Assembly: GCA_022646745.1 (NCBI GenBank)
Contig: CP060262.1
Coordinates: 3,870,001-3,902,000 of the forward strand
From: Planctomycetales bacterium
Lineage (GTDB): Bacteria > 4484-113 > JAFGCY01
Length of the DNA stretch: 32,000 nucleotides
Reading direction: 5' to 3'
Below the pieces are notes generated by a model. It saw only the letters and a list, made by a program, of their open reading frames with translations. It did not search any database and had not been told where the DNA came from. Every line of letters starts with the position of its first letter. Positions within the stretch are counted from its first letter, which is position 1. Shown piece after piece: positions 2,990 through 27,495 of this stretch. Both the position numbers and the translations under genes were made by a program.

Positions 2990-3101
2990 GAGAATATCTA
3001 CGGCGGCGGTTTGCCGCCGTTTTCGTTTTCTGGGATAATCGCGTTTCTATCCAGGCTGCCGGGATAGGTATAAGGAATCCGGCACCGATGTGGAGATGAT
3101 G

Positions 3102-4004
3102 ATGAGAATTGCAATCCTGACACTGATCATGCTGCTTGCCGCCATCCCGGCGCAGGCCTACACCCCGAACGTCGGCGACCGAGCAAATGACATCAGCGGC
3201 CGCGACGTGGTGAACGGGGGCGTGGCCCAGCTGTCCGACTACCTCGGCAAGTGGGTGTTCCTCGATTTCTGGGCCGGCTGGTGCGGGCCCTGCGTCGGTG
3301 AGATGCCGAACATGGTGCGTGAAACCAGCCGCGTGAAGGAGCAGTTTGGCAACTTCCAGGTGTTCGGTGTCAGCCTCGATGCCGACAGCACCACCAACCT
3401 GCTGCACAAGTACATCAAGGAAAACAACGTCGACTACCCGGTGACCTACGATGGCAACGGCTGGTCCACCGTGCAGAGCGTGGAGTGGGACATCCACTCC
3501 ATCCCGGCCACCTTCCTGATCAACCCGCAGGGTGTGATCGTCGCCACCAACCTGCGGGGCGAGGCGCTCGGGCCGGCACTCGACTTCTTCGTCGGCTATG
3601 AAGGCACCTACGCCCCGATCGGCCTGAGCAGCAGCTCGGCAGCCAACGATGACGGCAGCGTCAGCCTGAACGTGGAGCTGTTCAGCCCGGACCACCAGCC
3701 GATGCAGCTTGAGGTGGACTACTACCACGTCAAGTACGAGTACACCGAGACTGAATCCGGCGAGCGCAAGCGCAGCGGCAGCGAGTTCATCGAGCCGGAC
3801 GAGGAGAATTCAGAGTTCAGCGAGACCGTCACGTTCGGCGACTTCGGTGACAGGAGCATGAGCTTCACCATTCCCGCAGTGGAGGGTGCCGAGCTCGTGG
3901 GCTACAGCATCCGCGTGAAGCTGCCCGGCACTGATTCCCTCAACGACGGCGAAGGCCTGTGGGTCAGTGACAGCGGCCGTGTACGCATGGAACTTGATAA
4001 GTAA
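3102..4004 (+). CDS. Exported TlpA/ResA-like thiol:disulfide oxidoreductase (CGPC active site) with a C-terminal ~130-aa domain of unknown function
   Basis: ORF track 3090..4004. The start is probably ATG 3102 (MRIAILTLIMLLAAIPAQA, signal peptide). GKWVFLDFWAGWCGPCVGEMP is the thioredoxin-fold CxxC motif. HSIPATFLINPQG contains the cis-Pro loop. The C-terminal extension is shared with the three paralogs below. Confidence 0.85.
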   Translation: MRIAILTLIMLLAAIPAQAYTPNVGDRANDISGRDVVNGGVAQLSDYLGKWVFLDFWAGWCGPCVGEMPNMVRETSRVKEQFGNFQVFGVSLDADSTTNLLHKYIKENNVDYPVTYDGNGWSTVQSVEWDIHSIPATFLINPQGVIVATNLRGEALGPALDFFVGYEGTYAPIGLSSSSAANDDGSVSLNVELFSPDHQPMQLEVDYYHVKYEYTETESGERKRSGSEFIEPDEENSEFSETVTFGDFGDRSMSFTIPAVEGAELVGYSIRVKLPGTDSLNDGEGLWVSDSGRVRMELDK

Positions 4005-4043: not shown

Positions 4044-4946
4044 ATGAGGAACAAGATCCTGGCAATCGCGGCACTGGCAGCCATGCTGCTTCCCGCCGCG
4101 GCACATGCCCAGTTCGAGGCCAAGGCCGGCAACCGTGCACCGGAGCTGTTCGGCACGGATGCGGTGACCGGCGACTGGGTGGACATGGCCGACTTCAACG
4201 GCAAGTGGGTGCTGGCGGAGTTCTGGGCCACCTGGTGAGGACCCTGCATGAGGCAGTTGCCTCAGGTCGTCTCCGGTACCCGCGAACTGATTGACAACGG
4301 CAGGCTGGGGATGATCACCGCCAGCTACGACCGTGACAAGCAGGCCCTGCTCAATGTTATCGATGAGCGGGACATCACCTACCCCGTGATCTGGCAGAAC
4401 CAGGACAGCAATCGTGGCAACACGGAGGACTGGAACATCCGCGGCATCCCGACCACGGTGCTGATCAATCCGCAGGGCACCATCGTGGCTGACCTGCGCG
4501 CCGGTGAGGATTTCCAGCAGGTGCTGGAGTACTTCATCGAGCATGGCGAGGATCTCGGAGTGGTTGACATCAGCGGCAATGCCGTGACCCAGGATGACGG
4601 TTCCGTGAAGGTTGACCTCGAGATGTACTCCAGCCTGCACCGCGCTCTCGACGTGAAGGTCGAGGCCTACCGCGTGGTCTACAAGTGGGACGAGGAGAAT
4701 GACCCGAACCACGAAGGCCGCCCGCTGGACCGTGAATACATCGACCTGGCGGAGGAAGGGCATGACTTCTCCTTCACGCAGGACTTCAAGTGGTTCGCTG
4801 ATGCGGAGCACAGCTTCGTGATTGACAACATCGGAGAGGCTGACGCGGTTTACGTGATGGCCAGTGTGACCTACCCCGGCAGCGAGCACCTCAATGATGG
4901 TGAAGGTGTCGGCGTGTCCTTTGGTCGCAATGTGCCGCTGCCCTAG
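4044..4946 (+). CDS. Exported TlpA-like thiol:disulfide oxidoreductase, predicted selenoprotein (UGPC; in-frame TGA at 4236..4238)
   Basis: Track ORFs 4044..4238 and 4248..4946 are in the same frame. Read-through gives GKWVLAEFWATW-U-GPCMRQLP, with the TGA aligned to the first Cys of WCGPC in 3102..4004. The fold continues downstream with RGIPTTVLINPQG. GGAG lies 7 nt upstream of ATG 4044, and the N-terminus is a signal peptide (MRNKILAIAALAAMLLPAAAHA). Confidence 0.8.
4236..4264 (+). promoter_or_regulatory. Putative bacterial SECIS: UGA + 10 nt + hairpin UGAGG-CAGUUG-CCUCA
   Basis: The stem is 4249..4253 paired with 4260..4264, and the loop CAGUUG is 4254..4259. The same architecture with compensatory stem changes occurs at the other two TGA sites. 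Confidence 0.6.
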
Positions 4947-4973: not shown

Positions 4974-5002
4974 GGGGAGTCCTGCGGGGCTCCCCTTTTT
5001 TT
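4974..5002 (+). terminator. Rho-independent terminator after 4044..4946
   Basis: GGGGAGtcctgcggggCTCCCC is followed by TTTTTTT. Confidence 0.7.
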
Positions 5003-5792: not shown

Positions 5793-5923
5793 ATTTCTTC
5801 GATATTTCGAAATTTCTGAAGTTTTATGTTTATAAATCCCCATGGCGGGGAATTACAAGTGGTTTCGAAAGGAGCAGGAACTTCTGAGAAGCCCCAACAA
5901 CAATATTCTCAGAGGTGAATGTC

Positions 5924-6529
5924 ATGAAAGTCAACGGAATCATCGCTCGTATCGCAGCAGTCGCAGTTCTCTCCATCAGCGCCCTCGTCGCATCCTGCGG
6001 TGGTGGCTCAGTCGCCAGTGACATGGATGCCCAGCTTGACCAGACCAGCCAGGCCAGCAACATCATTGACGAGATCAGCGTGGCGGACGACATCAACGCC
6101 CAGGCTGATATCGACAAGGGCACCAGCGGCTACGACGGCTACTGGGTTGAAAGCGCAGACGCCGCCTATGTGGACGGCCTCGACATCCTCTTCCAGTTCA
6201 AGAAGAACGGCATGGGCCAGTACAAGTTCGTGATCAACATCACCAACAACTCTTCCCATTCCCGCATCGTCGACTTCAAGGACTTCAGCCTGAACTACGA
6301 CTACTTCGTCTACCAGAACGGCGTGAAGAAGTGGCAGGCCAGCCAGGACAGCTTCTGCCTCGTGATCGAGCCGGACTTCTACCTGCCGCCCTACCAGACC
6401 AAGTCCTACGAAGTCCCCTGGGATGGCAAGGACCTCTCCAACCACGTGGTGAGCGGACTGGCCACCGTCAAGGGCAAGCTCTACCTCAACAGCGGTACGG
6501 TGCTCCTTGAAGGCCCCGCCTACATCTAA
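5924..6529 (+). CDS. Lipoprotein, possibly BsuPI-like (proteinase-inhibitor-type beta-sandwich)
   Basis: ORF track 5915..6529. I prefer ATG 5924 because GAGG lies 9 nt upstream. MKVNGIIARIAAVAVLSISALVASCGGG is a lipobox signal. The segment FSLNYDYFVYQNGVKKWQASQDSFCLVIEPDFYLPPYQTKSYEVPWDGKD resembles the BsuPI domain pattern, judged from memory only. Confidence 0.6.
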   Translation: MKVNGIIARIAAVAVLSISALVASCGGGSVASDMDAQLDQTSQASNIIDEISVADDINAQADIDKGTSGYDGYWVESADAAYVDGLDILFQFKKNGMGQYKFVINITNNSSHSRIVDFKDFSLNYDYFVYQNGVKKWQASQDSFCLVIEPDFYLPPYQTKSYEVPWDGKDLSNHVVSGLATVKGKLYLNSGTVLLEGPAYI

Positions 6530-7703: not shown

Positions 7704-8162
7704 GTGCCGGACTTCATCCCCCGCAATCCAGACTTTGAGCGCAGCGTGCGCGAATCGTGGACCACACAGAGTTTCCTGCGCCTGCTGGGCGCTGAGATCA
7801 CCGCCGTGGCTCCCGGTGCGGTGGAAACCCGCCTGCCCTGGCGGGCGGACCTCTGCCAGCAACATGGCTACTTCCACGCCGGCGTAATTGCCACGCTGGC
7901 TGATGTGACCGGTGGATACAGTGCGTATTCGATGCTGCCGGCCGGCTGGTCGATGCTGTCAACGGAGTTCAAGGTCAACCTGATCAGCCCCGCGATCGGC
8001 GAATGCCTGGTCGCGCGCGGACAGCTGCTGAAGGCCGGACGCACCCTGTTCCCAGCCCGGGTGGACGTGTTTGCGCTCAAGGATGGCAACGAGAAGCTGG
8101 TGGCTGCGATGCAGATGACCCTGATGGGCCTCGAGGACAGGCCCGAGCTGGAGGCCCGCTGA
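7704..8162 (+). CDS. PaaI-family (hotdog fold) thioesterase
   Basis: 152 aa. The segment LGAEITAVAPGAVETRLPWRADLCQQHGYFHAGVIATLADVTGGYS...STEFKVNLISPA follows the PaaI/4HBT pattern. The start is GTG and is uncertain. Confidence 0.75.
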   Translation: MPDFIPRNPDFERSVRESWTTQSFLRLLGAEITAVAPGAVETRLPWRADLCQQHGYFHAGVIATLADVTGGYSAYSMLPAGWSMLSTEFKVNLISPAIGECLVARGQLLKAGRTLFPARVDVFALKDGNEKLVAAMQMTLMGLEDRPELEAR

Positions 8163-10587: not shown

Positions 10588-10761
10588 ATGTACACAACTG
10601 AGATCAGGGCGCACCGCCAGGAAGAGACCAACCTCCGCGACCAGTTCGAGGCTCGCTGGGATTTCGAGGTGATCCTGTCTGAACTGCGCCGCAACCCCGT
10701 ACTGGAAGTGATCGGTAGCAATGAGAAGGTCTATGCTATAGAATACTTCGCAACCGCCTAG
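10588..10761 (+). CDS. Hypothetical small protein (57 aa from ATG 10588)
   Basis: This is the part of track ORF 10504..10761 starting at MYTTEIRAHRQEETNLRDQFEARWDFEVILSELRRNPVLEVIGSNEKVYAIEYFATA. It is followed by the hairpin ACCGCC..GGCGGT plus a T-rich tail. I recognise no homology and the RBS is weak. Confidence 0.3.
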   Translation: MYTTEIRAHRQEETNLRDQFEARWDFEVILSELRRNPVLEVIGSNEKVYAIEYFATA

Positions 10762-10994
10762 GGCGAAACCCGGCGGTTACTTTTGTGAACTTACTTTTGT
10801 TACTTTGCTTTCTGGAGAAGAACCGATGACTATCATTTCGCGTAATGACAACAATGGCATCCGCAGCATCCTCGATTCCGTGCCCGTTCGTGAGCTCACC
10901 GCTGTGACCAATGACGAGCGCGAGGACGAGCCCACCCAGTAGTCGGGGTAACAGCCTGCCGCAACCGGTGCTAATCTAGCAGTGGAGGTAGGCA

Positions 10995-11933
10995 ATGAAA
11001 ACGATAAAGCTGATGGTCGCCGTGATGGTTCTCCTGTGGACCGCCCCGGCGCTGGCATTTGAAGCGGATGCGGGAAACCGTGCCCTGCCGCTCTACGGCA
11101 TCGACCGTGTCAGCGGAGACTGGGTTGACCTGGCCGATTACCGCGGCAAGTGGGTGCTGCTGGAGAACTGGGCCACCTGGTGAGGACCCTGCATGGGGCA
11201 GTTGCCCTATCTGCTGGACGAGACCAGTGAACTGCGCAAGCGCAGTGACTTCGCCGTGTTCACCGTGGCATTCGACAACCCGGACCGCGAGCAGGAAGTC
11301 GACAAGGTGATCCGCGAGAAGAAGATCCCGCATGTGGTGGTCTGGGACCACCGCGAGGCGACGGACCTTTCCAACAAGGCCGACTGGAACATCAAGGGCT
11401 TCCCGACCACCGTGCTCGTCAACCCCGATGGCATCATCCAGGGCAGCATGGACGTGGACGAGAACCTTGAGGAGAACCTGCTCTACTTCCTCGAGCAGGA
11501 CAGTGTCCCTGCCCCGATCGGACTGAGCTTCAGCAAGCCGACTGATGACGAGGGAAATGTCATGCTGTCGGACGATGGCTCGGTCAGGCTGACGATTGAT
11601 GTGTACAGCCCGACGCATGAGGATCTCGAAGTGATGGTCGACGTGATGGGCACGAAGATCAGCTATGATGACGAGAAGGATCCCGAGCACAAGGAACCGA
11701 ACTACGAGCCCGTCAACTACCGTGACGAGGGCCGTGCCCCGGACTTCACCGCCAGCTTCAGCCAGTACGGCAGTTTCACCAAGGACGTGATGCTGACGCC
11801 GGAGGAAGGCATGGGCTACCTGTTCGTGGTGGTCAGCGTGAAGATCCCCGGCACCGAGGCGCTCAACGGTGGAGAGGGACTGACGACGTCCAGCTTTGAC
11901 TTCATCAGCTTCCCGAAGGAAGATGCTGAGTAA
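10995..11933 (+). CDS. Exported TlpA-like thiol:disulfide oxidoreductase, predicted selenoprotein (UGPC; TGA at 11181..11183)
   Basis: Track ORFs 10995..11183 and 11193..11933 share one frame. Read-through gives GKWVLLENWATW-U-GPCMGQLP. GGAGG lies upstream of the ATG, and the signal peptide is MKTIKLMVAVMVLLWTAPALA. The cis-Pro loop is KGFPTTVLVNPDG. Confidence 0.8.
11181..11210 (+). promoter_or_regulatory. Putative SECIS hairpin A-UGGGG-CAGUUG-CCCUA-U
   Basis: The stem is 11193..11198 paired with 11205..11210 and includes one G:U pair. The loop CAGUUG is 11199..11204. The 5-bp core stem (UGGGG, 11194..11198) is 10 nt from the UGA as at 4236, and the extra A-U closing pair (11193/11210) shortens that gap to 9 nt. 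Confidence 0.55.
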
Positions 11934-11966
11934 GAAGGCCCGACTGATAAATGATTGATCCACAGT

Positions 11967-11997
11967 GGAGCCCGGCTGGGCTCCCCTGTTTGTTTCG
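11967..11997 (+). terminator. Rho-independent terminator between the two tandem Sec paralogs
   Basis: GGAGCCC-ggct-GGGCTCC is followed by cctgtttgtttcg. Confidence 0.6.
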
Positions 11998-12043
11998 TGG
12001 TGCGCTTCCGATATACTTCCCACAGACCTGAGAGGGAGTACAC

Positions 12044-12967
12044 ATGACCCGTACCATTCTGGCAACATGCCTGCTGGCCATCCTGCTGGCAGGCAGCCCC
12101 GCGCTGGCATTTGAACCGCTAAGCGGCACACGCGCCTACCCGATCAGTGGCACCGACATCGTCAGCGGCCAGCATGTGGACCTCGACCAGTACCTCGGCA
12201 AGTGGGTGCTGCTCGAGTTCTGGGCCACCTGGTGAGGACCCTGCGTCGGGCAGTTGCCCGAAGTGCAGGCATTGCATGAGCAGTTCGCGGGTCGCGATGA
12301 CTTTGCGCTCTTGTCAGTGAGTGGCGACTACCCCGACAGCATGGACGAACTGCGTCCGATGATTGAGGAATACGGCATCACCTACCCCGTGCTGCATGGC
12401 CTGGATGGCGATGAGCCTGACCTGCACGACTGGGATATTCTCGGATTTCCATCGGCCTTCCTGATCAATCCACAGGGCGTGGTCCTGCTGGAGACGCATA
12501 TCGGTGAGTACACAGCGGGCTGGCTGGAAACACTGCTCAACCTCGAGCAGGAGATTCCCGTGACCCAGCTTTCCGTGGACAATGAGCTGCTGGACAATGG
12601 CGGGCTGCGCTTCACTGTGCGTTCCGACAGGCAGCTGGATGTGCATGTCAATGTCGGCAAGATCCTCGAGGAGTACTGGGAAGATGTTGACGGAGAATGG
12701 CAGGAAGTGGAGAATCCTCCTGCCGACGCAGAGCCCAACATGAGTGCCTACCATTCACTTGACGACTGGGAGAACAGGATTGTCAGCCTTGAGCCGCTGG
12801 ATGGATCATTCGTCTACAGCTTTGAGATTGAGCCAGTTACGGACGACAACCTGTGGTTGATCCAGTGCAGTGTTTCAGCGCAGATCCCCGGAACCGAGGA
12901 GCTTGAAGCAATGCTTCCGATGCTGATGGCGGGAAGCGAATGGTTCAAGCCGGAATCGGATTCTTAG
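12044..12967 (+). CDS. Exported TlpA-like thiol:disulfide oxidoreductase, predicted selenoprotein (UGPC; TGA at 12233..12235)
   Basis: Track ORFs 12044..12235 and 12254..12967 share one frame. Read-through gives GKWVLLEFWATW-U-GPCVGQLP. AGGGAG lies upstream of the ATG, and the signal peptide is MTRTILATCLLAILLAGSPALA. The cis-Pro loop is LGFPSAFLINPQG. Confidence 0.8.
12233..12261 (+). promoter_or_regulatory. Putative SECIS hairpin UCGGG-CAGUUG-CCCGA
   Basis: The stem is 12246..12250 paired with 12257..12261, and the loop is 12251..12256. The second base pair is C-G here, versus G-C at 4250/4263. Confidence 0.55.
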
Positions 12968-21448: not shown

Positions 21449-22561
21449 CTAGATTAACTGACGGAACTGCTCATCACTGCGATGGAGTAATTCGCGCAGT
21501 TCCTTCAATTTGTCCTCGAGGTGCGTGCGTACATGCTCGCGCTCGTTCCACAGGTCCGCGAAGGTGCTGAAGGTGTCCTCGCGGTGCTGGGTGGCGGGGA
21601 AGCACCAGGGGAAGCCCAGTTCAGTGCCGATCTGGCTGATCTTGGGGTCGATCGCGATGCCGAGGCAGGGGACCAGCGCACCGGCGGCGGCGATCAGGCC
21701 GTGCAGGCGGCTGGTGATCACCAGCTGGGCATGGCGCGTGAGCTGCCAGTAGTCCGGTTGCGGCTGGTCCACTCCCGGGGCCAGCTGCGCATCGCCTACG
21801 CATTCAGCCACGATCTCCTGCGCGAAGCCGAGGTCCTCCGGGGCATAGGGCAGCACGAGGCAGTCCATCCCGGTCTGTTCACGCACATGCCGGATCAGGG
21901 TGGCCGCCGCCTGGGCTTCGCTTACGAGGTCATCCGGGGCCGGCAGGTCACCGCTGCGGCGCGGGATGTAGGCGAAGTAGCGGGCCGGCAGCTGCGAGCC
22001 GTCGAAACCGCTCAGCGGCGGCTGGTCATACAGCAGGATCGGGTCACAGGACTGCACAAGCCGGCAGTTGCCGGAGTCGACGCGGTGCTTCTGGGCCCAC
22101 TGCATGCTCTGTTCATCGCGCAGGCTGAGCATGTCCGTATTGCGTAGCACGATCGGCGTGAGTGTGCTGCCCAGCCAGGAGCTGATCGGGCCGATGCCCT
22201 GGTTGAGCAGCAGTACGCGGCAGGTGGACTGGGTGAAGCGACGGATGAACCAGAGGTAATAGAGCAGGCTCTTCACGCTGGAGCTGTCCTGCAGGATGCT
22301 GCCGCCGGGCAGCACCAGCACCTGGTAGTCGCGCGGGTCGAGGCGCAGGGCCTGCTTCTGGGGGACCAGCTGGCTGACACTGTCCAGCAGCTGGCGTGAC
22401 GAAGGAATGCCCGGCAGCAGCTTGTCGCCGCGCACCACTACGTCGATGTCGAAGTTCTGGTCGCGGAAGAAGCGGCCGTGGCGGATCAGCCAGTCGGCCA
22501 ATAGCGCCTCATCGCCGAAGTTTCCCGCACCGAAATAGCCGAGCAGCAGAATCCTTGCCAC
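21449..22561 (-). CDS. csaB: Polysaccharide pyruvyl transferase CsaB
   Basis: 370 aa. The N-terminus ILLLGYFGAGNFGDEALL and the C-terminal TSRLHGLI are typical of the CsaB/pyruvyl transferase family. Confidence 0.75.
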   Translation of the reverse strand: MARILLLGYFGAGNFGDEALLADWLIRHGRFFRDQNFDIDVVVRGDKLLPGIPSSRQLLDSVSQLVPQKQALRLDPRDYQVLVLPGGSILQDSSSVKSLLYYLWFIRRFTQSTCRVLLLNQGIGPISSWLGSTLTPIVLRNTDMLSLRDEQSMQWAQKHRVDSGNCRLVQSCDPILLYDQPPLSGFDGSQLPARYFAYIPRRSGDLPAPDDLVSEAQAAATLIRHVREQTGMDCLVLPYAPEDLGFAQEIVAECVGDAQLAPGVDQPQPDYWQLTRHAQLVITSRLHGLIAAAGALVPCLGIAIDPKISQIGTELGFPWCFPATQHREDTFSTFADLWNEREHVRTHLEDKLKELRELLHRSDEQFRQLI

Positions 22562-22605
22562 GTCTGGATTGTAGCTCAGGCCGGCGGCTGGGCTACAATC
22601 AGCCG

Positions 22606-24789
22606 ATGAAGGGATTGATAGTGGCAGCGCTCGTGGCCTGCCTCGTACTGGCGGGTTGCCCCGGCAGGGACGGCGACAACACGGGCAAGGCGCCCTCCGG
22701 CAAGTACGGGGAATACAGCCTGAAGCTGAGGGATGCGACTGCCTTCGAAGCGGAACTGAAGCGCCTGCAGGAGCATTTCGCGGGTGATGGCAGCGCCAGC
22801 GCGGTGACGAGCGGCAGCGCGCAGCTCAACTACAAGCTCGGACAGCGCGTGCGCGAGGATGGCATCGCGGTTGTGATGCGTGACAACACGACGGATGAGG
22901 AGCTGGTGCTGTGGGTCTGGCGCGACAGCACGGGCCAGCAGGCGGCACCGCAGCTTGTCAACCAGCAGGAGCTGGGCGGCGGCGGGATGAGCCTGCAGTA
23001 CCAGCTGGACGAGGGTGTGTTCCTCGCGCTCAGCCTGCGCTGGGTACAGGACCGCTACCTTGAGGTGAAGCGCAACTACGAGGCCGGCGGGCTGGATGCG
23101 GAGTTGCCAATGGGCAGCGATTACACCGCATGGACACTGGAGCTGCCGCCCCTGCCCTACCGACTGGCCGCCGGGGCCAGCGGGCCATTCGGCGTGCTGG
23201 AGGAAGCGCAGGCCGATGGGGCCTGGCACAGTGCGAACTATCCCGGGGAGCTGATGCTGCCAGCGCTGGCGGCCTACGACCAGAGCCGCGGCGTGCTGCT
23301 GGCGATCTCGGATGAGCATCCGCGACGGATGGACCGGGAGTACCACTGCGGCTGGCGGCTGGCCAACGGGATGGATGGCAATGATGGCAACCGGCAACTC
23401 AGCATCGACTACACGGTCTTCAACACCACGGTGGACGGCTTCACTGAGCCGCTGCTGATCAGCGGCCTGCCGCAGCGTGACAGCGTGGTGCTGGAGCCGT
23501 TCAGCTTGCAGCCGACGACGATGGAGGACAGTTTCGTGGCAGGCACGACCCAGCAGGTGGCTGACCGCATGAGCGACTTCGTGGCGGCCTTCCACGCACG
23601 CTACAGCCCGCGGCTCGTGACGGAGCAGCATACGATGCTGGATGCGCCGGGGATCAGCCCGGATACAAGCGGGGCGGAACTGGCAGCACTGCATGAGGTG
23701 CTGGAACTGAAGACCGGGCTGTGGGACACGGCGGGGATCATCACGGACACACGAACCGGGGCATCCTTCCCGGACGGACTGGCAATAGCCGGCCTGCCTG
23801 AGGATGCGGCGGTGAAGTGTGACGAATTCGGCATCACACAGTGGCAACGGGTCTCGCCCTTCAGCCTGCCGGCGGACAGCCCGGAACTGAAGAGCGACAG
23901 GGAACTGGCACTGCTGGACAAGCCTGGCAATGGCCCGGGCCGGGTGCCACTGAGGATCAGGCGGCCGCAGACCGCTGACAGCCTGCTCAGTGCGTTCGAC
24001 GGCGTAACTGGCAAGGCGCTGCTGCTGGACCTGGACACGCTCGTGACGGGAGGCCAGGACCCCCGCAGCCAGCCGCTGGCCGGCAGCCAGCAGGCGGCGG
24101 CGGCGATGCTGGCAATGAAGATCTGTGAGGACAACTCAGCGAAGGAACAGCCGCTCAGGCTGGCGATTGAGGGACTTCCGAGCCTCGGCATGCCGCCCTG
24201 TGCGGACATCTACCTGCTGCCCCATGCGGCGGACGGGCCGCTGCTGCGCGACCGGATACTGGGCATGCTCACGCTGCGCATCTTCGGCGTGCCGGCCTGG
24301 CCGGGGCACGGGATTGACAACAGCGCCGGGCTTGCGGCAGCCGTGACGGAGAACAGTGCCGGGCTGGTGGTGGACTATGAGCTGGCGCGTGGCAGCGCCG
24401 ACAGGCTGCTGCAGGCCAACCTCGAGCTGTTCCGTGAGGCCGGCAAGCTGGATGACTACGTGATGATGCACTGCGAGCCACGCTACGGCAGCTACACCCT
24501 GACCGGCGAGGCGCCGGCCAGCCCGGATGCCCTGCTGCTCGGCCTGCCGGCCAAGTGGAGCGGGCGCAGCCTGGTGCGGGTCTGCATCTTCGGTACCGGT
24601 GTTGATGCGCTGGTGGACCGCGAAATGATGATGCTCAACCTGCAGCTTGGCAACGGAGGCAGCGTGCTGCAGCCGATGCCATTTGGCAACTATGAGATCC
24701 AGAATGAGCAGCCGGAGGCGATCCCGGCCGGGGATGCGTTGCTGCTGATGCGCAACCTGGCGACGCCGGAGACCCAGGGACGCAGCTAG
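22606..24789 (+). CDS. Large lipoprotein of unknown function (727 aa)
   Basis: This is the in-frame part of track ORF 22396..24789. ATG 22606 gives MKGLIVAALVACLVLAGCPGRDG, a lipobox signal. The upstream part of the track ORF overlaps csaB on the opposite strand and is not credible. I recognise no domain. Confidence 0.6.
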   Translation: MKGLIVAALVACLVLAGCPGRDGDNTGKAPSGKYGEYSLKLRDATAFEAELKRLQEHFAGDGSASAVTSGSAQLNYKLGQRVREDGIAVVMRDNTTDEELVLWVWRDSTGQQAAPQLVNQQELGGGGMSLQYQLDEGVFLALSLRWVQDRYLEVKRNYEAGGLDAELPMGSDYTAWTLELPPLPYRLAAGASGPFGVLEEAQADGAWHSANYPGELMLPALAAYDQSRGVLLAISDEHPRRMDREYHCGWRLANGMDGNDGNRQLSIDYTVFNTTVDGFTEPLLISGLPQRDSVVLEPFSLQPTTMEDSFVAGTTQQVADRMSDFVAAFHARYSPRLVTEQHTMLDAPGISPDTSGAELAALHEVLELKTGLWDTAGIITDTRTGASFPDGLAIAGLPEDAAVKCDEFGITQWQRVSPFSLPADSPELKSDRELALLDKPGNGPGRVPLRIRRPQTADSLLSAFDGVTGKALLLDLDTLVTGGQDPRSQPLAGSQQAAAAMLAMKICEDNSAKEQPLRLAIEGLPSLGMPPCADIYLLPHAADGPLLRDRILGMLTLRIFGVPAWPGHGIDNSAGLAAAVTENSAGLVVDYELARGSADRLLQANLELFREAGKLDDYVMMHCEPRYGSYTLTGEAPASPDALLLGLPAKWSGRSLVRVCIFGTGVDALVDREMMMLNLQLGNGGSVLQPMPFGNYEIQNEQPEAIPAGDALLLMRNLATPETQGRS

Positions 24790-26243
24790 CGGCCCCTGCG
24801 CTCCCTTCGTTTGAGCTTCTTCGCCACTTCCGCAGCGATGTCACCGGGCGAGTCATGCAGCCAGCCCGCAAACGGGTTGAGCATGTCCGGCGTGGCCGGG
24901 ATGCTGCGGCTGCGCGGACTGCCCCAGCCCTCGAACAGGCGCGGCAGCTTCGGCGGCAGGTGCACCTCAGGCTGCGGCTCCACTGCTTCAGCCGGGGCGC
25001 TGCCAACGGCGTCCTGCACCGGGTCAGCGTGGGCCGGTTCCCCATGCTCTTCGGCAACAGCTGGATTAGTTTCCGGGCCGTCATCCAGCCAGCCCTCGAG
25101 CGGATTGACTGGTACACTGCGTGGCGGCAGCGGCTCATCCAGCCAGCCGTCCAGCGGGTTGCGCGGTGTGCTGCGCGCGTTGCCACTGCGCGGGATGTAC
25201 GGCAGGTCGGCCCAGTCCTCTTCCGGTGCCTCCACGAAGCTGCCATCCGGAGTGATCTCCAGCAGGCTCTCACCCTCCGGCAGGCGGTGCACGGGAGCTT
25301 CAGGCAGGGGTGGCATGCTGAGATTGCCACGCGGGGCCGGCTGCTCCAGCAGTTCCGGGAAGTGCGAGGGATGCAGGCCGCTGTCCGGCTGCTCCACGAG
25401 GTCAGCGGTGGATTCGTCGAGCTGGCCCAGCAGCGCGCTGTCAGCGACGGGCCAGTACCATTCGGCAATGTAGGGTTCATACTGCGGCAGGCACATGTCC
25501 GGCTCACAGGCCACGAACTGCTCGAGCACCATGCAGGCGATGTTCTTCGTGAGCGCAATCGCGAAAGGGTAGTCACGCGCCGCGAACTCGACTGTCAGCA
25601 GGTAGTGGCTGCCATCAATCACGCGCAGCACGCGCAGCTCGCCACTGACGGAGCTGTAGACCGGATCGCCTTCGACCGTTGGATGCATGAGCGGGCTCGG
25701 CAGCACTGCGCTGTAGCCAATGTACTCGCGGCTGCAGTTCTCCTTGTCCCGCGGGTCCGTCAGTCCCAGCGGGGAGCGCATCTCCGTCACACTGTAGCCG
25801 CTGTCAGTGCGCTGCTCGCGGGCGATCTGTGACCTGCGGGCCATGTAGGCCGCGCTTTCGTCGAAGCTCAGTCGCAGCGGGTTGGCATCTCCCTTGACCG
25901 GGCTCATGCGCAGGCTGGCAACAGCCTGGAAGCTGCCGCCGGCGGGATCGTGCGACATAAGCTGGATACTGCTCAGGCCATGGCCGGGGTACGGCAGTCC
26001 CTTATGCCAGGCCCCCTGGTTGTAGATGTATGGCTCATCCTCCACCGGGTGCAGCAGCATCCCGGGAGGGGCGATCGTGCTCCATTCCAGGCCGGACAGC
26101 ACCGGTGCCTGCTGGGGCCACTGCATGGTGGAGGCAGGCAACTCGTGGATGTCCGGCAGGCTGCGGCGTTCCTCCACGCGGGCATGCGCGGCAAGCGGCA
26201 GCAGCAGGCAGATCGCAGGCAGCAGTCGTGCAACAGGGTGCAT
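24786..26243 (-). CDS. Secreted protein of unknown function with C-terminal NPxxGWL repeats and a basic tail
   Basis: This is part of track ORF 24786..26345. The internal Met at 26243 gives MHPVARLLPAICLLLPLAAHA, a signal peptide. The track start lies inside a terminator hairpin. The C-terminus carries NPLDGWLDE, NPLEGWLDD, NPFAGWLHD and ends KKLKRRERRGR. Confidence 0.55.
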   Translation of the reverse strand: MHPVARLLPAICLLLPLAAHARVEERRSLPDIHELPASTMQWPQQAPVLSGLEWSTIAPPGMLLHPVEDEPYIYNQGAWHKGLPYPGHGLSSIQLMSHDPAGGSFQAVASLRMSPVKGDANPLRLSFDESAAYMARRSQIAREQRTDSGYSVTEMRSPLGLTDPRDKENCSREYIGYSAVLPSPLMHPTVEGDPVYSSVSGELRVLRVIDGSHYLLTVEFAARDYPFAIALTKNIACMVLEQFVACEPDMCLPQYEPYIAEWYWPVADSALLGQLDESTADLVEQPDSGLHPSHFPELLEQPAPRGNLSMPPLPEAPVHRLPEGESLLEITPDGSFVEAPEEDWADLPYIPRSGNARSTPRNPLDGWLDEPLPPRSVPVNPLEGWLDDGPETNPAVAEEHGEPAHADPVQDAVGSAPAEAVEPQPEVHLPPKLPRLFEGWGSPRSRSIPATPDMLNPFAGWLHDSPGDIAAEVAKKLKRRERRGR

Positions 26244-26313
26244 GTGGGGTATATCGGCAGGGGAAAGAGGTGGTTGAACCCTGGCTGGCAGACCGGCGAG
26301 CCTTCGGGCGAGA

Positions 26314-26373
26314 CGGCAAATCAAAAAGGCTCCACGATTTCTCATGGAGCCCTACCAAGTTAGGGGGGATGGT
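26314..26373. repeat. 60-bp direct repeat, copy 1
   Basis: cggcaaatcaaaaaggctccacgatttctcatggagccctaccaagttaggggggatggt is identical to 27700..27759. The flanks are unrelated on both sides. Confidence 0.9.
26318..26351 (-). terminator. Rho-independent terminator (minus strand) inside repeat copy 1
   Basis: The minus strand reads GGCTCCA-tgagaaatcg-TGGAGCC-TTTTTGATTT. Confidence 0.7.
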
Positions 26374-26596: not shown

Positions 26597-27166
26597 TCAC
26601 TCCTCAGCGCAAAGCAGTGCGAAATACGTTACTGTGTCACGAATAGCCTCTTGGTCAAAGTAAGTCTCTTGGTTGTATAGGCCTTCTATGACCACTTTGG
26701 ACAAGTCAAATTCCTCCAGCGTCCTCACAAAATCCACTTCAGCATTCCCCTCACCCTTATTGGAAATCAGAATCACGCTGGAAAACTCTATGTAGACGTT
26801 AGCCTTTGAAAGCTCCTTTGACACATAGCTTTTGGAGAACTCTTCAGACTTTCCAACTCCAACAGCCTTAGAAAAAGTCTCCCCGTTGTATTCAACGTAG
26901 AACCAGCACTTGCTTGGCAACAACCTTTCTTCCTGAATACTGCCAATGTTAAGAACCAGCCTGTAGCAAGACCTGTCACTTTCAGGCTGTTCTATGGTTA
27001 GGTACACATGAGGGGACTCCGTAGGGATTCCGCTCTTGTGAGTGTGGACAATGACTCCTTCGTCCTCAAAGTAATCAACAGCGAATCTGTCACTAAGTTC
27101 TTCAGCATATGAAAAGGAACTCAGTGAAATGAAAGCCAGAAAACACAGAATAAATATATTTCTCAT
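26597..27166 (-). CDS. Secreted protein of unknown function (189 aa)
   Basis: This is part of track ORF 26597..27298. ATG 27166 has GAGGT 9 nt upstream and gives MRNIFILCFLAFISLSSFSYAEE, a signal peptide. The sequence is low in GC and I recognise no domain. Confidence 0.55.
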   Translation of the reverse strand: MRNIFILCFLAFISLSSFSYAEELSDRFAVDYFEDEGVIVHTHKSGIPTESPHVYLTIEQPESDRSCYRLVLNIGSIQEERLLPSKCWFYVEYNGETFSKAVGVGKSEEFSKSYVSKELSKANVYIEFSSVILISNKGEGNAEVDFVRTLEEFDLSKVVIEGLYNQETYFDQEAIRDTVTYFALLCAEE

Positions 27167-27204
27167 TATAAGTTTACCTCGGGCACTTACTATGGTTGTT
27201 GGAT

Positions 27205-27495
27205 TCATTGTGCCAATGCACTTAACCCCAAACCACCAACCATAGCAACCAAGAAATAGGCCAAGAATGGAAGCACAATGAACACCCATACAATGCAACC
27301 AAGTGATTGAGCAATTGAACTAAGTTTCTTGTGCGTCGTTTCTGTCAACTCTAGAACGTCATTGTGATAATTGCAAAGGTCTTGTCTAAGAGCTCTATTT
27401 TCATTGACCAGCAATGTGAGTCTCTTACATACTCTGTCATTTTCCTTTTCTAATGCTTCAAGAAAGTCCTCTTGGCTTCTACCTGCAGTATCCAT
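27205..27495 (-). CDS. Tail-anchored coiled-coil membrane protein (96 aa; alternative starts up to 27552)
   Basis: ATG 27495 is preceded by AGGTGA 5 nt upstream. MDTAGRSQEDFLEALEKENDRVCKRLTLLVNENRALRQDL is a coiled-coil-like heptad sequence. The C-terminus LGCIVWVFIVLPFLAYFLVAMVGGLGLSAL is hydrophobic. Confidence 0.45.
   Translation of the reverse strand: MDTAGRSQEDFLEALEKENDRVCKRLTLLVNENRALRQDLCNYHNDVLELTETTHKKLSSIAQSLGCIVWVFIVLPFLAYFLVAMVGGLGLSALAQ

Follow-up and report, generated by a model that had tools for sequence, protein, structure and literature searches.

Three genes for TlpA/ResA-like thioredoxin-fold proteins, each with a single in-frame TGA at the codon of the catalytic cysteine (Cys), and a fourth paralog with TGC at this position were found in a stretch of 32,000 nucleotides (nt) from a Planctomycetales bacterium (contig CP060262.1, positions 3,870,001 to 3,902,000 of the forward strand), which is referred to at its full length as the window. 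Judged from its conservation, from the hairpin behind it and from the selection acting on both sides of it, the UGA of these genes is very probably recoded as selenocysteine (Sec). The same sequence comparisons support well that the three genes, designated P2, P3 and P4, are intact and encode two-domain thiol-disulfide oxidoreductases of the TlpA/ResA type with a predicted Sec as attacking residue. P1, which lies directly upstream of P2, represents this enzyme type in its sulfur form.

Architecture of the four paralogs

The four genes and the elements belonging to them are located in the window as follows (SECIS, selenocysteine insertion sequence):

3096..4004, + strand: P1, the Cys paralog, TGC at 3282-3284; same two-domain architecture, without the hairpin
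4044..4946, + strand: P2, the third Sec-type paralog, 300 codons, TGA at 4236-4238; starts 39 nt downstream of P1
4249..4264, + strand: SECIS-like hairpin of P2, UGAGGC-AGUU-GCCUCA, -9.5 kcal/mol
4974-4995: terminator-like site after P2
10995..11933, + strand: P3, Sec-type gene, 312 codons, ATG start, TAA end; single in-frame stop is TGA at 11181-11183
11181..11183, + strand: putative Sec codon (UGA) of P3, context ...LLENWATW*GPCMGQLP
11194..11209, + strand: SECIS-like hairpin of P3, UGGGGC-AGUU-GCCCUA, 6 bp, 4-nt loop
11967..11984, + strand: terminator-like hairpin after P3, conserved in the related locus L009
12044..12967, + strand: P4, Sec-type gene, 307 codons, ATG start, TAG end; single in-frame stop is TGA at 12233-12235; architecture as in P3
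12233..12235, + strand: putative Sec codon (UGA) of P4, context ...LLEFWATW*GPCVGQLP
12246..12261, + strand: SECIS-like hairpin of P4, UCGGGC-AGUU-GCCCGA, -11.0 kcal/mol

A preliminary description of the window had proposed a family of three Sec genes and one Cys gene within 10 kb, and translation confirmed the frames of P3 and P4 with their single TGA at the catalytic codon. In a six-frame motif scan exactly four W-[C/*]-GPC sites were returned (TGC 3282, TGA 4236, TGA 11181 and TGA 12233), so that the proposed family was recovered in full, including the Cys version retained beside its Sec paralogs. All four genes fit in 9.9 kb, in which the pairs P1-P2 (spacer 39 nt) and P3-P4 (spacer 110 nt) are separated by 6 kb; P1 and P2 probably form one operon. 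When the whole window was scanned for TGA-interrupted frames with a high G+C content at third codon positions (GC3), P2 and P3 were returned and no other candidate, P4 lying below the cut-off with a GC3 of 0.72 over the whole open reading frame (ORF).

P2, P3 and P4 share about 31-33% identity with P1 in the alignment of the four paralogs, among which P4 is the most divergent. The common architecture consists of a signal-peptide-like N-terminus, a TlpA/ResA-like domain of about 140 amino acids and a C-terminal beta-sandwich of about 130 amino acids. Each N-terminus has a basic part, then a hydrophobic stretch and an A-x-A site (e.g., ...APALA|FE). The domain of about 140 amino acids matched the Pfam models AhpC-TSA, Redoxin and Thioredoxin_8 with E-values of 1e-7 to 1e-17, PF00578 and PF08534 scoring above their gathering thresholds, and neither the W-[C/U]-G-P-C motif nor the proline of (I/F)-P-(T/A/S) varies among the four sequences. 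The active-site peptide of P3 would accordingly read ...NWATW-U-GPCMGQLPYLLDETSELR. An AlphaFold model of P1 reached a mean predicted local distance difference test score (pLDDT) of 80 and resembled the structures of ResA, TlpA and DsbE with Foldseek E-values of about 1e-10; target-normalized template modeling (TM) scores were 0.74-0.84 for the top matches, 0.74-0.80 for ResA and DsbE and 0.53-0.61 for TlpA. In this model the helix 64-68 begins at the active-site motif. By profile matches and predicted fold, the four paralogs clearly belong to the TlpA/ResA-like thioredoxin-fold oxidoreductases. None of them passed the cut-off of an NCBIfam equivalog, the best scores for TlpA (NF047696), ResA (NF002854), DsbE/CcmG (TIGR00385) and StoA (NF041202) being 43-77 bits compared with cut-offs of 123-230, and with 26-35 bits against a cut-off of 300 they are not members of NF041054, the ResA-like WAxxUGC selenoprotein.

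The C-terminal region of about 130 amino acids had no match in Pfam or NCBIfam. Modeled alone, this domain of P1 forms an eight-stranded beta-sandwich with a pLDDT of 92; a Foldseek search with it returned just generic Ig-like or ApaG/BsuPI-like sandwiches (E about 1e-3, TM-score at most 0.5) and gave no function. Between the two gene pairs, at 5915-6529 on the + strand, there is an ORF with a weak match to BsuPI (PF12690), likewise of the beta-sandwich type.

Conservation of the UGA codon and its reading

In alignments, the TGA of P2, P3 and P4 falls on the first Cys of the W-C-G-P-C that P1 and hundreds of TlpA-like homologs possess, which bears out its earlier placement at the nucleophilic position of the TlpA/ResA-type CxxC. 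A search with the P3 protein yielded seven close relatives of 48-77% identity, which are annotated with 229-244 amino acids, begin with MGQLP directly after U-GPC and carry the GenBank label "hypothetical protein" on this downstream part. On the contigs of these relatives the same TGA "splits" P2 as well as P3, and P1 has TGC. In four related genomes (L004, L005, L007/L008 and L010) the orthologs of P2 and P3 keep TGA and those of P1 keep TGC, and additional P3 orthologs in L001-L003, L009 and L015 all have TGA. The P1 orthologs have TGC in five of five cases, with synonymous sites varying across the region equivalent to the hairpin; a sense codon other than that for Cys was found at this column in none of the close relatives. 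On these alignments, the recurrence of the TGA position across every ortholog examined is far beyond chance.

Ratios of nonsynonymous to synonymous substitution rates (dN/dS) were 0.05-0.42 upstream and downstream of the TGA, at dS values of 0.4-2.9, around 1, and thus in the same range as in the Cys paralog P1. P2, P3 and P4 are not pseudogenes, given a TGA kept in all orthologs, open frames and dN/dS values far below 1 to either side of it. The label "hypothetical protein" on the downstream part in GenBank is the one point in favor of decayed genes, or of sequencing or assembly errors that produced premature stops. Independent assemblies from many samples show the same TGA, as do orthologs with identities down to 48%, and these genes contain no other stops or frameshifts; this explanation, to which we assign a negligible probability, is effectively refuted.

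A reassigned genetic code, in which UGA would be a general sense codon for Trp or Gly, finds support in the in-frame TGAs themselves and in nothing further. Of the 18 well-supported genes of the window, nine have TGA as their terminal stop, and the resulting lengths agree with those of the orthologs; among the genes ending in TGA are 779-1177, 1278-2348 and 7704-8162, with orthologs of 131-132, 356 and 152 amino acids, respectively, for which a genuine stop had been assumed from the start. The terminal stops of orthologous genes interchange among TGA, TAA and TAG, while the internal TGA of P2 and P3 is never TAA or TAG in any ortholog, and in the P3 gene of L007 and the P2 gene of L005 an internal and a terminal TGA occur together. 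Within the 18 genes, internal TGAs are restricted to the three active sites, and the scan of the window returned no other TGA-interrupted frame. Since many genes have TGA as their stop, in exchange with TAA and TAG among orthologs, the code is not reassigned, in agreement with the preliminary description; this alternative, too, has practically no probability left and is effectively refuted.

The sequence UGAGGACCCUGCAUG (window 4236-4251 and 11181-11196) starts with the UGA and has, six nt before an in-frame ATG, a GAGGA that resembles a Shine-Dalgarno sequence, so that gene callers uniformly start a short protein there. The arrangement could also be understood as a pair of split genes, translation stopping at the UGA after a peptide of 62-63 amino acids and restarting at the ATG 9 nt downstream with this GAGGA as Shine-Dalgarno sequence. 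GAGG(A/T/C)-N6-ATG is indeed kept in all orthologs of P2 and P3, and the split calling is found in every database entry. However, the restart codon is GTC, CTC or CGC, none of them a start codon, in P4, L012, L016, L017 and L018, and the downstream product alone would have neither a signal peptide nor the first beta-strands nor the nucleophile of the active site. Purifying selection moreover acts on the 62 codons before the UGA in the same way as on the remainder of the gene, and the two parts joined align end-to-end with single-chain Cys homologs. We therefore regard split genes as very improbable.

A SECIS-like hairpin and the proposed mechanism

Directly downstream of the UGA the Sec genes share the consensus UGA-GG(N)-CC(N)-UG(Y)-NNN-N-GGCAGUUGCC-N, in which the invariant core GGCAGUUGCC forms a hairpin with a stem of 5-6 bp and the loop AGUU starting 16 nt after the UGA; the overlapping codons specify the peptide x-(G/R)-Q-L-P. 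For P3 the minimum free energy (MFE) is -9.6 kcal/mol for the 18-nt segment 11193-11210. The criteria for a bacterial SECIS (bSECIS) comprise a loop of 3-9 nt, a stem of 4-16 bp, a distance of 16-37 nt from the UGA, an MFE of at most -7.5 kcal/mol, and a G as first or second nucleotide of the loop with G or U after it (PMC13188914, Fig. 2 legend). The hairpins agree with all of them (loop of 4 nt, stem of 5-6 bp, G at loop position 2 followed by U, 16 nt, MFE of -8.0 to -11.6 kcal/mol).

Among 16 Sec genes, 94.8% of the pair cells are standard pairs and the five core pairs reach 100%, compared with just 54.8% pairing in seven Cys genes; in P1 the hairpin is absent. Two of the six pairs covary: pair 15/28 (alignment columns) occurs as GC, CG or GU and pair 16/27 as GC, AU, CG or GU. 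Within the window, the C-G of P4 at columns 15/28 is compensatory with respect to the G-C of P2 and P3, and the A-U of P2 at columns 16/27 with respect to the G-C of P3 and P4. The observed covariation score was reached by none of 500 column shuffles, and pairing fell from 95% to 31-66% when the register was slid. Furthermore, 19 of 19 Sec genes examined encode the Leu within the hairpin by TTG, a codon which accounts for 3% (16/536) of the Leu codons in the 18 window genes, and the Cys relative P0245 encodes the same MRQLP peptide with the codons CAA CTG and has lost the hairpin. The fixation of TTG in the Sec genes and the same peptide without a hairpin in P0245 argue for a constraint on the RNA beyond that on the peptide. 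Three family representatives called as short proteins, which were chosen by protein profile alone with the hairpin ignored, all had the TGA and the GGCAGUUGCC core (3/3).

The conserved UGA, the hairpin and the purifying selection prove recoding but do not tell which residue is inserted. By a dedicated mechanism, such as a tRNA-Sec-like tRNA carrying Cys, an idea known from the literature on natural recoding, UGA could be decoded as Cys or another residue. This alternative we consider improbable, if somewhat less so than split genes: at this very position UxxC thioredoxin-fold selenoproteins classically exchange Sec and Cys (PMC13188914, Table 1), the hairpin conforms to the bSECIS model of the SelB type, and a costly recoding signal just for Cys would bring no obvious benefit with a TGC paralog next door.

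With Sec as the favored residue, the short mRNA hairpin at the UGA would recruit SelB with Sec-tRNA(Sec), resulting in insertion of Sec instead of termination, and the Sec machinery would be expected in the genome. A cleavable N-terminal signal peptide, as predicted, would place the product outside the cytoplasm. There the selenolate of U-G-P-C would attack disulfides of a substrate, which the resolving Cys would then release, and the oxidized enzyme would presumably be re-reduced by a membrane electron carrier of the CcdA/DsbD type encoded elsewhere; binding of a partner or the substrate is the probable role of the C-terminal beta-sandwich. From fold and motif we thus infer an exported selenol-based disulfide reductase with re-reduction of the CcdA/DsbD type.

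Several observations weigh against this picture. The window and the related loci, to which the search was confined, showed no selA, selB, selC or selD; tRNA scans of the window and seven loci found tRNA-Pro(GGG) alone and never tRNA-Sec, and among 20 neighboring ORFs annotated with Pfam there was no Sec machinery and no CcdA, DsbD, ccm/cytochrome-maturation or sco gene. The hairpin is short and its spacing of 16 nt is the lower limit of the consensus. Rfam returned no SECIS match, either in the whole window at gathering score or permissively around the UGAs of P3 and P4, as is expected for bacterial SECIS elements, and z-scores of 60-nt folds were unremarkable (-0.2 to -1.5), which is uninformative as the element is just about 16 nt long. 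Four of the 16 hairpin sequences were retrieved by a DNA pattern that fixed columns 18-26, so that the invariance of these columns is by construction in those four; the covarying columns were free in the pattern. The signal peptides were assigned by eye alone. Finally, P4 lacks several motifs of the C-terminal domain and is absent from the MAG contig L009 (JAGRNR010000054.1, "UBP7 HKST-UBA01"), although the DNA is 94-97% identical across the aligned blocks; because of the missing motifs, its GC3 and its absence from a near-identical strain, P4 may be dispensable.

Distribution of the family and conservation of the locus

An exhaustive profile search found 31 representatives at E <1e-30 and 310 at E <1e-10. 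Among matches covering both domains, in clusters defined at 50% identity, about 30 clusters begin exactly after U-GPC (with MRQLP, VRQLP, LPxL and similar starts) and about 24 are full-length with Cys, as counted by hand. On these start positions, roughly half of the two-domain family is suggested to be of the Sec type and mis-called as truncated. An annotation gap becomes apparent: in the public collections searched, all Sec-form members that were found have entries as "hypothetical protein" with a truncated N-terminus, and the profile search suggests that about 30 clusters are affected. Tandem pairs of a Cys and a Sec gene recur on the unrelated contigs L012, L016, L019 and L021. The motif varies from U-G-P-C to U-G-G-C in L021 and U-G-A-C in L020, where the Sec-type member (WAST-U-GAC, 9-bp hairpin) lies directly downstream of a cluster for Rieske protein, cytochrome b and multihaem cytochrome c (L020 1-3672); this neighborhood is a possible hint at a role in the maturation of respiratory complexes. 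L012 also carries a short Sec-type TlpA-like gene (1565-2065, 166 codons) without the C-terminal beta-sandwich and with the same hairpin core, which is situated between a P1-like Cys gene and the gene of P0122.

Trees were constructed by neighbor joining and several nodes are weak. P2 and P3 form sister clades (95% bootstrap), both entirely Sec, and a clade with 100% support unites P2, P3, P4, L018, the Sec gene of L016 and the short Sec gene of L012 with one nested Cys protein, P0122; the P1 orthologs make up a clade of Cys proteins, at the base of which stands a Sec gene (L017). The preliminary description had regarded the Sec genes of the window as three independent genes and not pseudogenes. 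The latter holds, as set out above, but their independence does not, as P2 and P3 are sisters and one hairpin type is common to all Sec genes; for the same two reasons Sec in P2, P3 and P4 was, on sequence evidence, probably inherited and not acquired three times.

P0122 (TGC; L012 2208-3086) keeps an intact hairpin, CAGGC-UGUU-GCCUG, of -12 kcal/mol with the core CAGGCUGUUGCCUG, and P0270 (TGT; L023 3001-4104) keeps the hairpin core CGGCAGUUGCCG. As the SECIS core is still present, both are candidates for recent Sec-to-Cys reversions. In P0245 (L022), likewise of the Cys type, the RQLP peptide is kept and the hairpin has decayed. The Cys relatives with a hairpin core suggest Sec-to-Cys reversion, a lead and not a result, given distance-based trees with weak nodes. 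A phylogeny had been proposed earlier for dating the switches between Sec and Cys; the trees placed a Cys protein inside the Sec clade. That the two-domain family was ancestrally Sec-containing and repeatedly reverted to Cys is a tentative and rather doubtful extension of this lead. P0245 would then be an older reversion, and the P1 clade may be an older one still. If this were true, Sec-to-Cys replacement would be common in this oxidoreductase family, while a recent review describes it as rare in bacteria; the Cys-Sec tandem (P1-P2 and the pairs of L012, L016, L019 and L021) would be a back-up pair for selenium availability outside the cytoplasm, and the gain or loss of P4 between strains would show the process to be still going on.

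The survey of related genomes that had been advised earlier showed the P1-P3 locus to be conserved in four of them and P4 to be missing from these relatives; a scan of genome contigs matched just three species representatives. The conserved gene order comprises FtsH, a 131-amino-acid gene, a Big_1 protein, P1, P2, 4HBT, a DNA-alkylation repair gene, a polyketide-cyclase-like gene, Tag, P3, tRNA-Pro, OsmC, an aminotransferase and HflX. In L009 about 35 nt (5893-5928) between the P3 terminator and tRNA-Pro(GGG) stand in place of window 12000-12967, and P4 is also absent from the other relatives. In the window, P4 lies between the two copies of a short, imperfect repeat (left GATATAcTTcCC..CAC, right GATATAATTTGCCTCCAC). 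A fragment, P0121, is identical to the P4 protein and present in two sequencing runs, and the closest Sec relative of P4 lies on L018 (42% identity, TGA). L016 contains a P4-like Sec gene in front of the same tRNA-Pro(GGG), which together with the L018 gene indicates that P4 is an old, variably retained member of the family. A recent duplication of P3 or gene conversion from it as the origin of P4 (the active-site DNA is 76% identical) was set aside, since P4 groups with the P4-like genes of L018 and L016, the short L012 gene and P0122.

Two small ORFs precede P3 on the + strand, one at about 10590-10763 (about 57 amino acids, MYTTEIRAH...EYFATA) and one at about 10827-10943 (38 amino acids, MTIISRNDNNGIRSILDSVPVRELTAV...); both are kept in sequence and position in L001, L004, L005 and L007 and have no family assignment. 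Elsewhere in the window, the segment 26001-28000 has a G+C content of 0.49 compared with 0.57-0.67 in the remainder. The ORF 26597-27298 (- strand) has a GC3 of 0.46 and no Pfam match, and the large ORFs 22396-24789 and 24786-26345 had no Pfam match either.

Relation to known systems

The genes add an apparently new subfamily to a kind of bacterial selenoprotein that is already known. Predictions of TlpA-like (cd02966) "thiol-disulfide isomerase-like" selenoproteins with a UxxC motif go back to 2005 and the Sargasso Sea metagenome (PMC1088965), five such genes were found in the metagenome of one gutless-worm symbiont community (PMC1976440), and UxxC TlpA-like proteins are tabulated together with Prx-like thiol:disulfide oxidoreductases and UGC-type TlpA proteins in a 2026 review (PMC13188914, Table 1). 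To call the Sec paralogs of the window unusual, as had been done at first, was therefore an overstatement, all the more as about half of this subfamily is of the Sec type in public data. A literature search on "UBP7" and selenocysteine returned nothing relevant.

With the thiol-disulfide isomerase-like selenoproteins, the genes described here have in common the TlpA-like fold, the predicted Sec at the N-terminal Cys of CxxC, widespread Cys homologs and a SECIS presumed just downstream of the UGA. As far as the published descriptions go, they differ in the additional C-terminal beta-sandwich of about 130 amino acids, which no Pfam or NCBIfam model describes, in the family-specific core GGCAGUUGCC, in the Cys-Sec tandem pairs and in their candidate-phylum lineage ("UBP7", "4484_113"). 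ResA, TlpA and CcmG(DsbE), extracytoplasmic thiol-disulfide reductases for the maturation of cytochrome c and CuA/Sco, share the fold, W-C/U-G-P-C at the start of helix 1, the cis-Pro loop (I/F-P-T/A-T) and the N-terminal export signal, which is a prediction in our case; they use Cys and not Sec, and the present proteins are set apart from them by scores of 60-77 bits compared with NCBIfam cut-offs of 170-230, by the extra C-terminal domain and by a window without ccm, ccdA or sco neighbors. The WAxxUGC selenoprotein of NF041054 is likewise ResA/TlpA-like with Sec after a W-A-x-x context, but its motif is U-G-C instead of U-G-P-C.

Like the SECIS of Escherichia coli fdhF and the bSECISearch consensus, the hairpin is positioned directly 3' of the UGA within the coding sequence and exposes G-U in a small apical loop. 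The fdhF element is much longer than this hairpin of 5-6 bp and shows no sequence similarity to it; a bulged U is absent here, and the loop GU is found at +18/+19 after the UGA, that of fdhF at +20/+21. What is known of Sec decoding and of the protein classes that use Sec is not changed by these genes. As a minimal element of 14-16 nt with an invariant core, the hairpin is a simple candidate SECIS for reporter work, and one Cys and three Sec versions of a two-domain enzyme at one locus, together with the Cys relatives that keep the hairpin, provide a natural test set in which the benefit of selenium to a periplasmic thiol-disulfide reductase could be measured and Sec/Cys switches could be dated. 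Measured against the known systems, what is new is a subfamily with two domains and an invariant hairpin core, the repeated occurrence of Cys-Sec tandems, the lineage and, in the collections searched, the uniform mis-calling of the Sec forms as truncated proteins.

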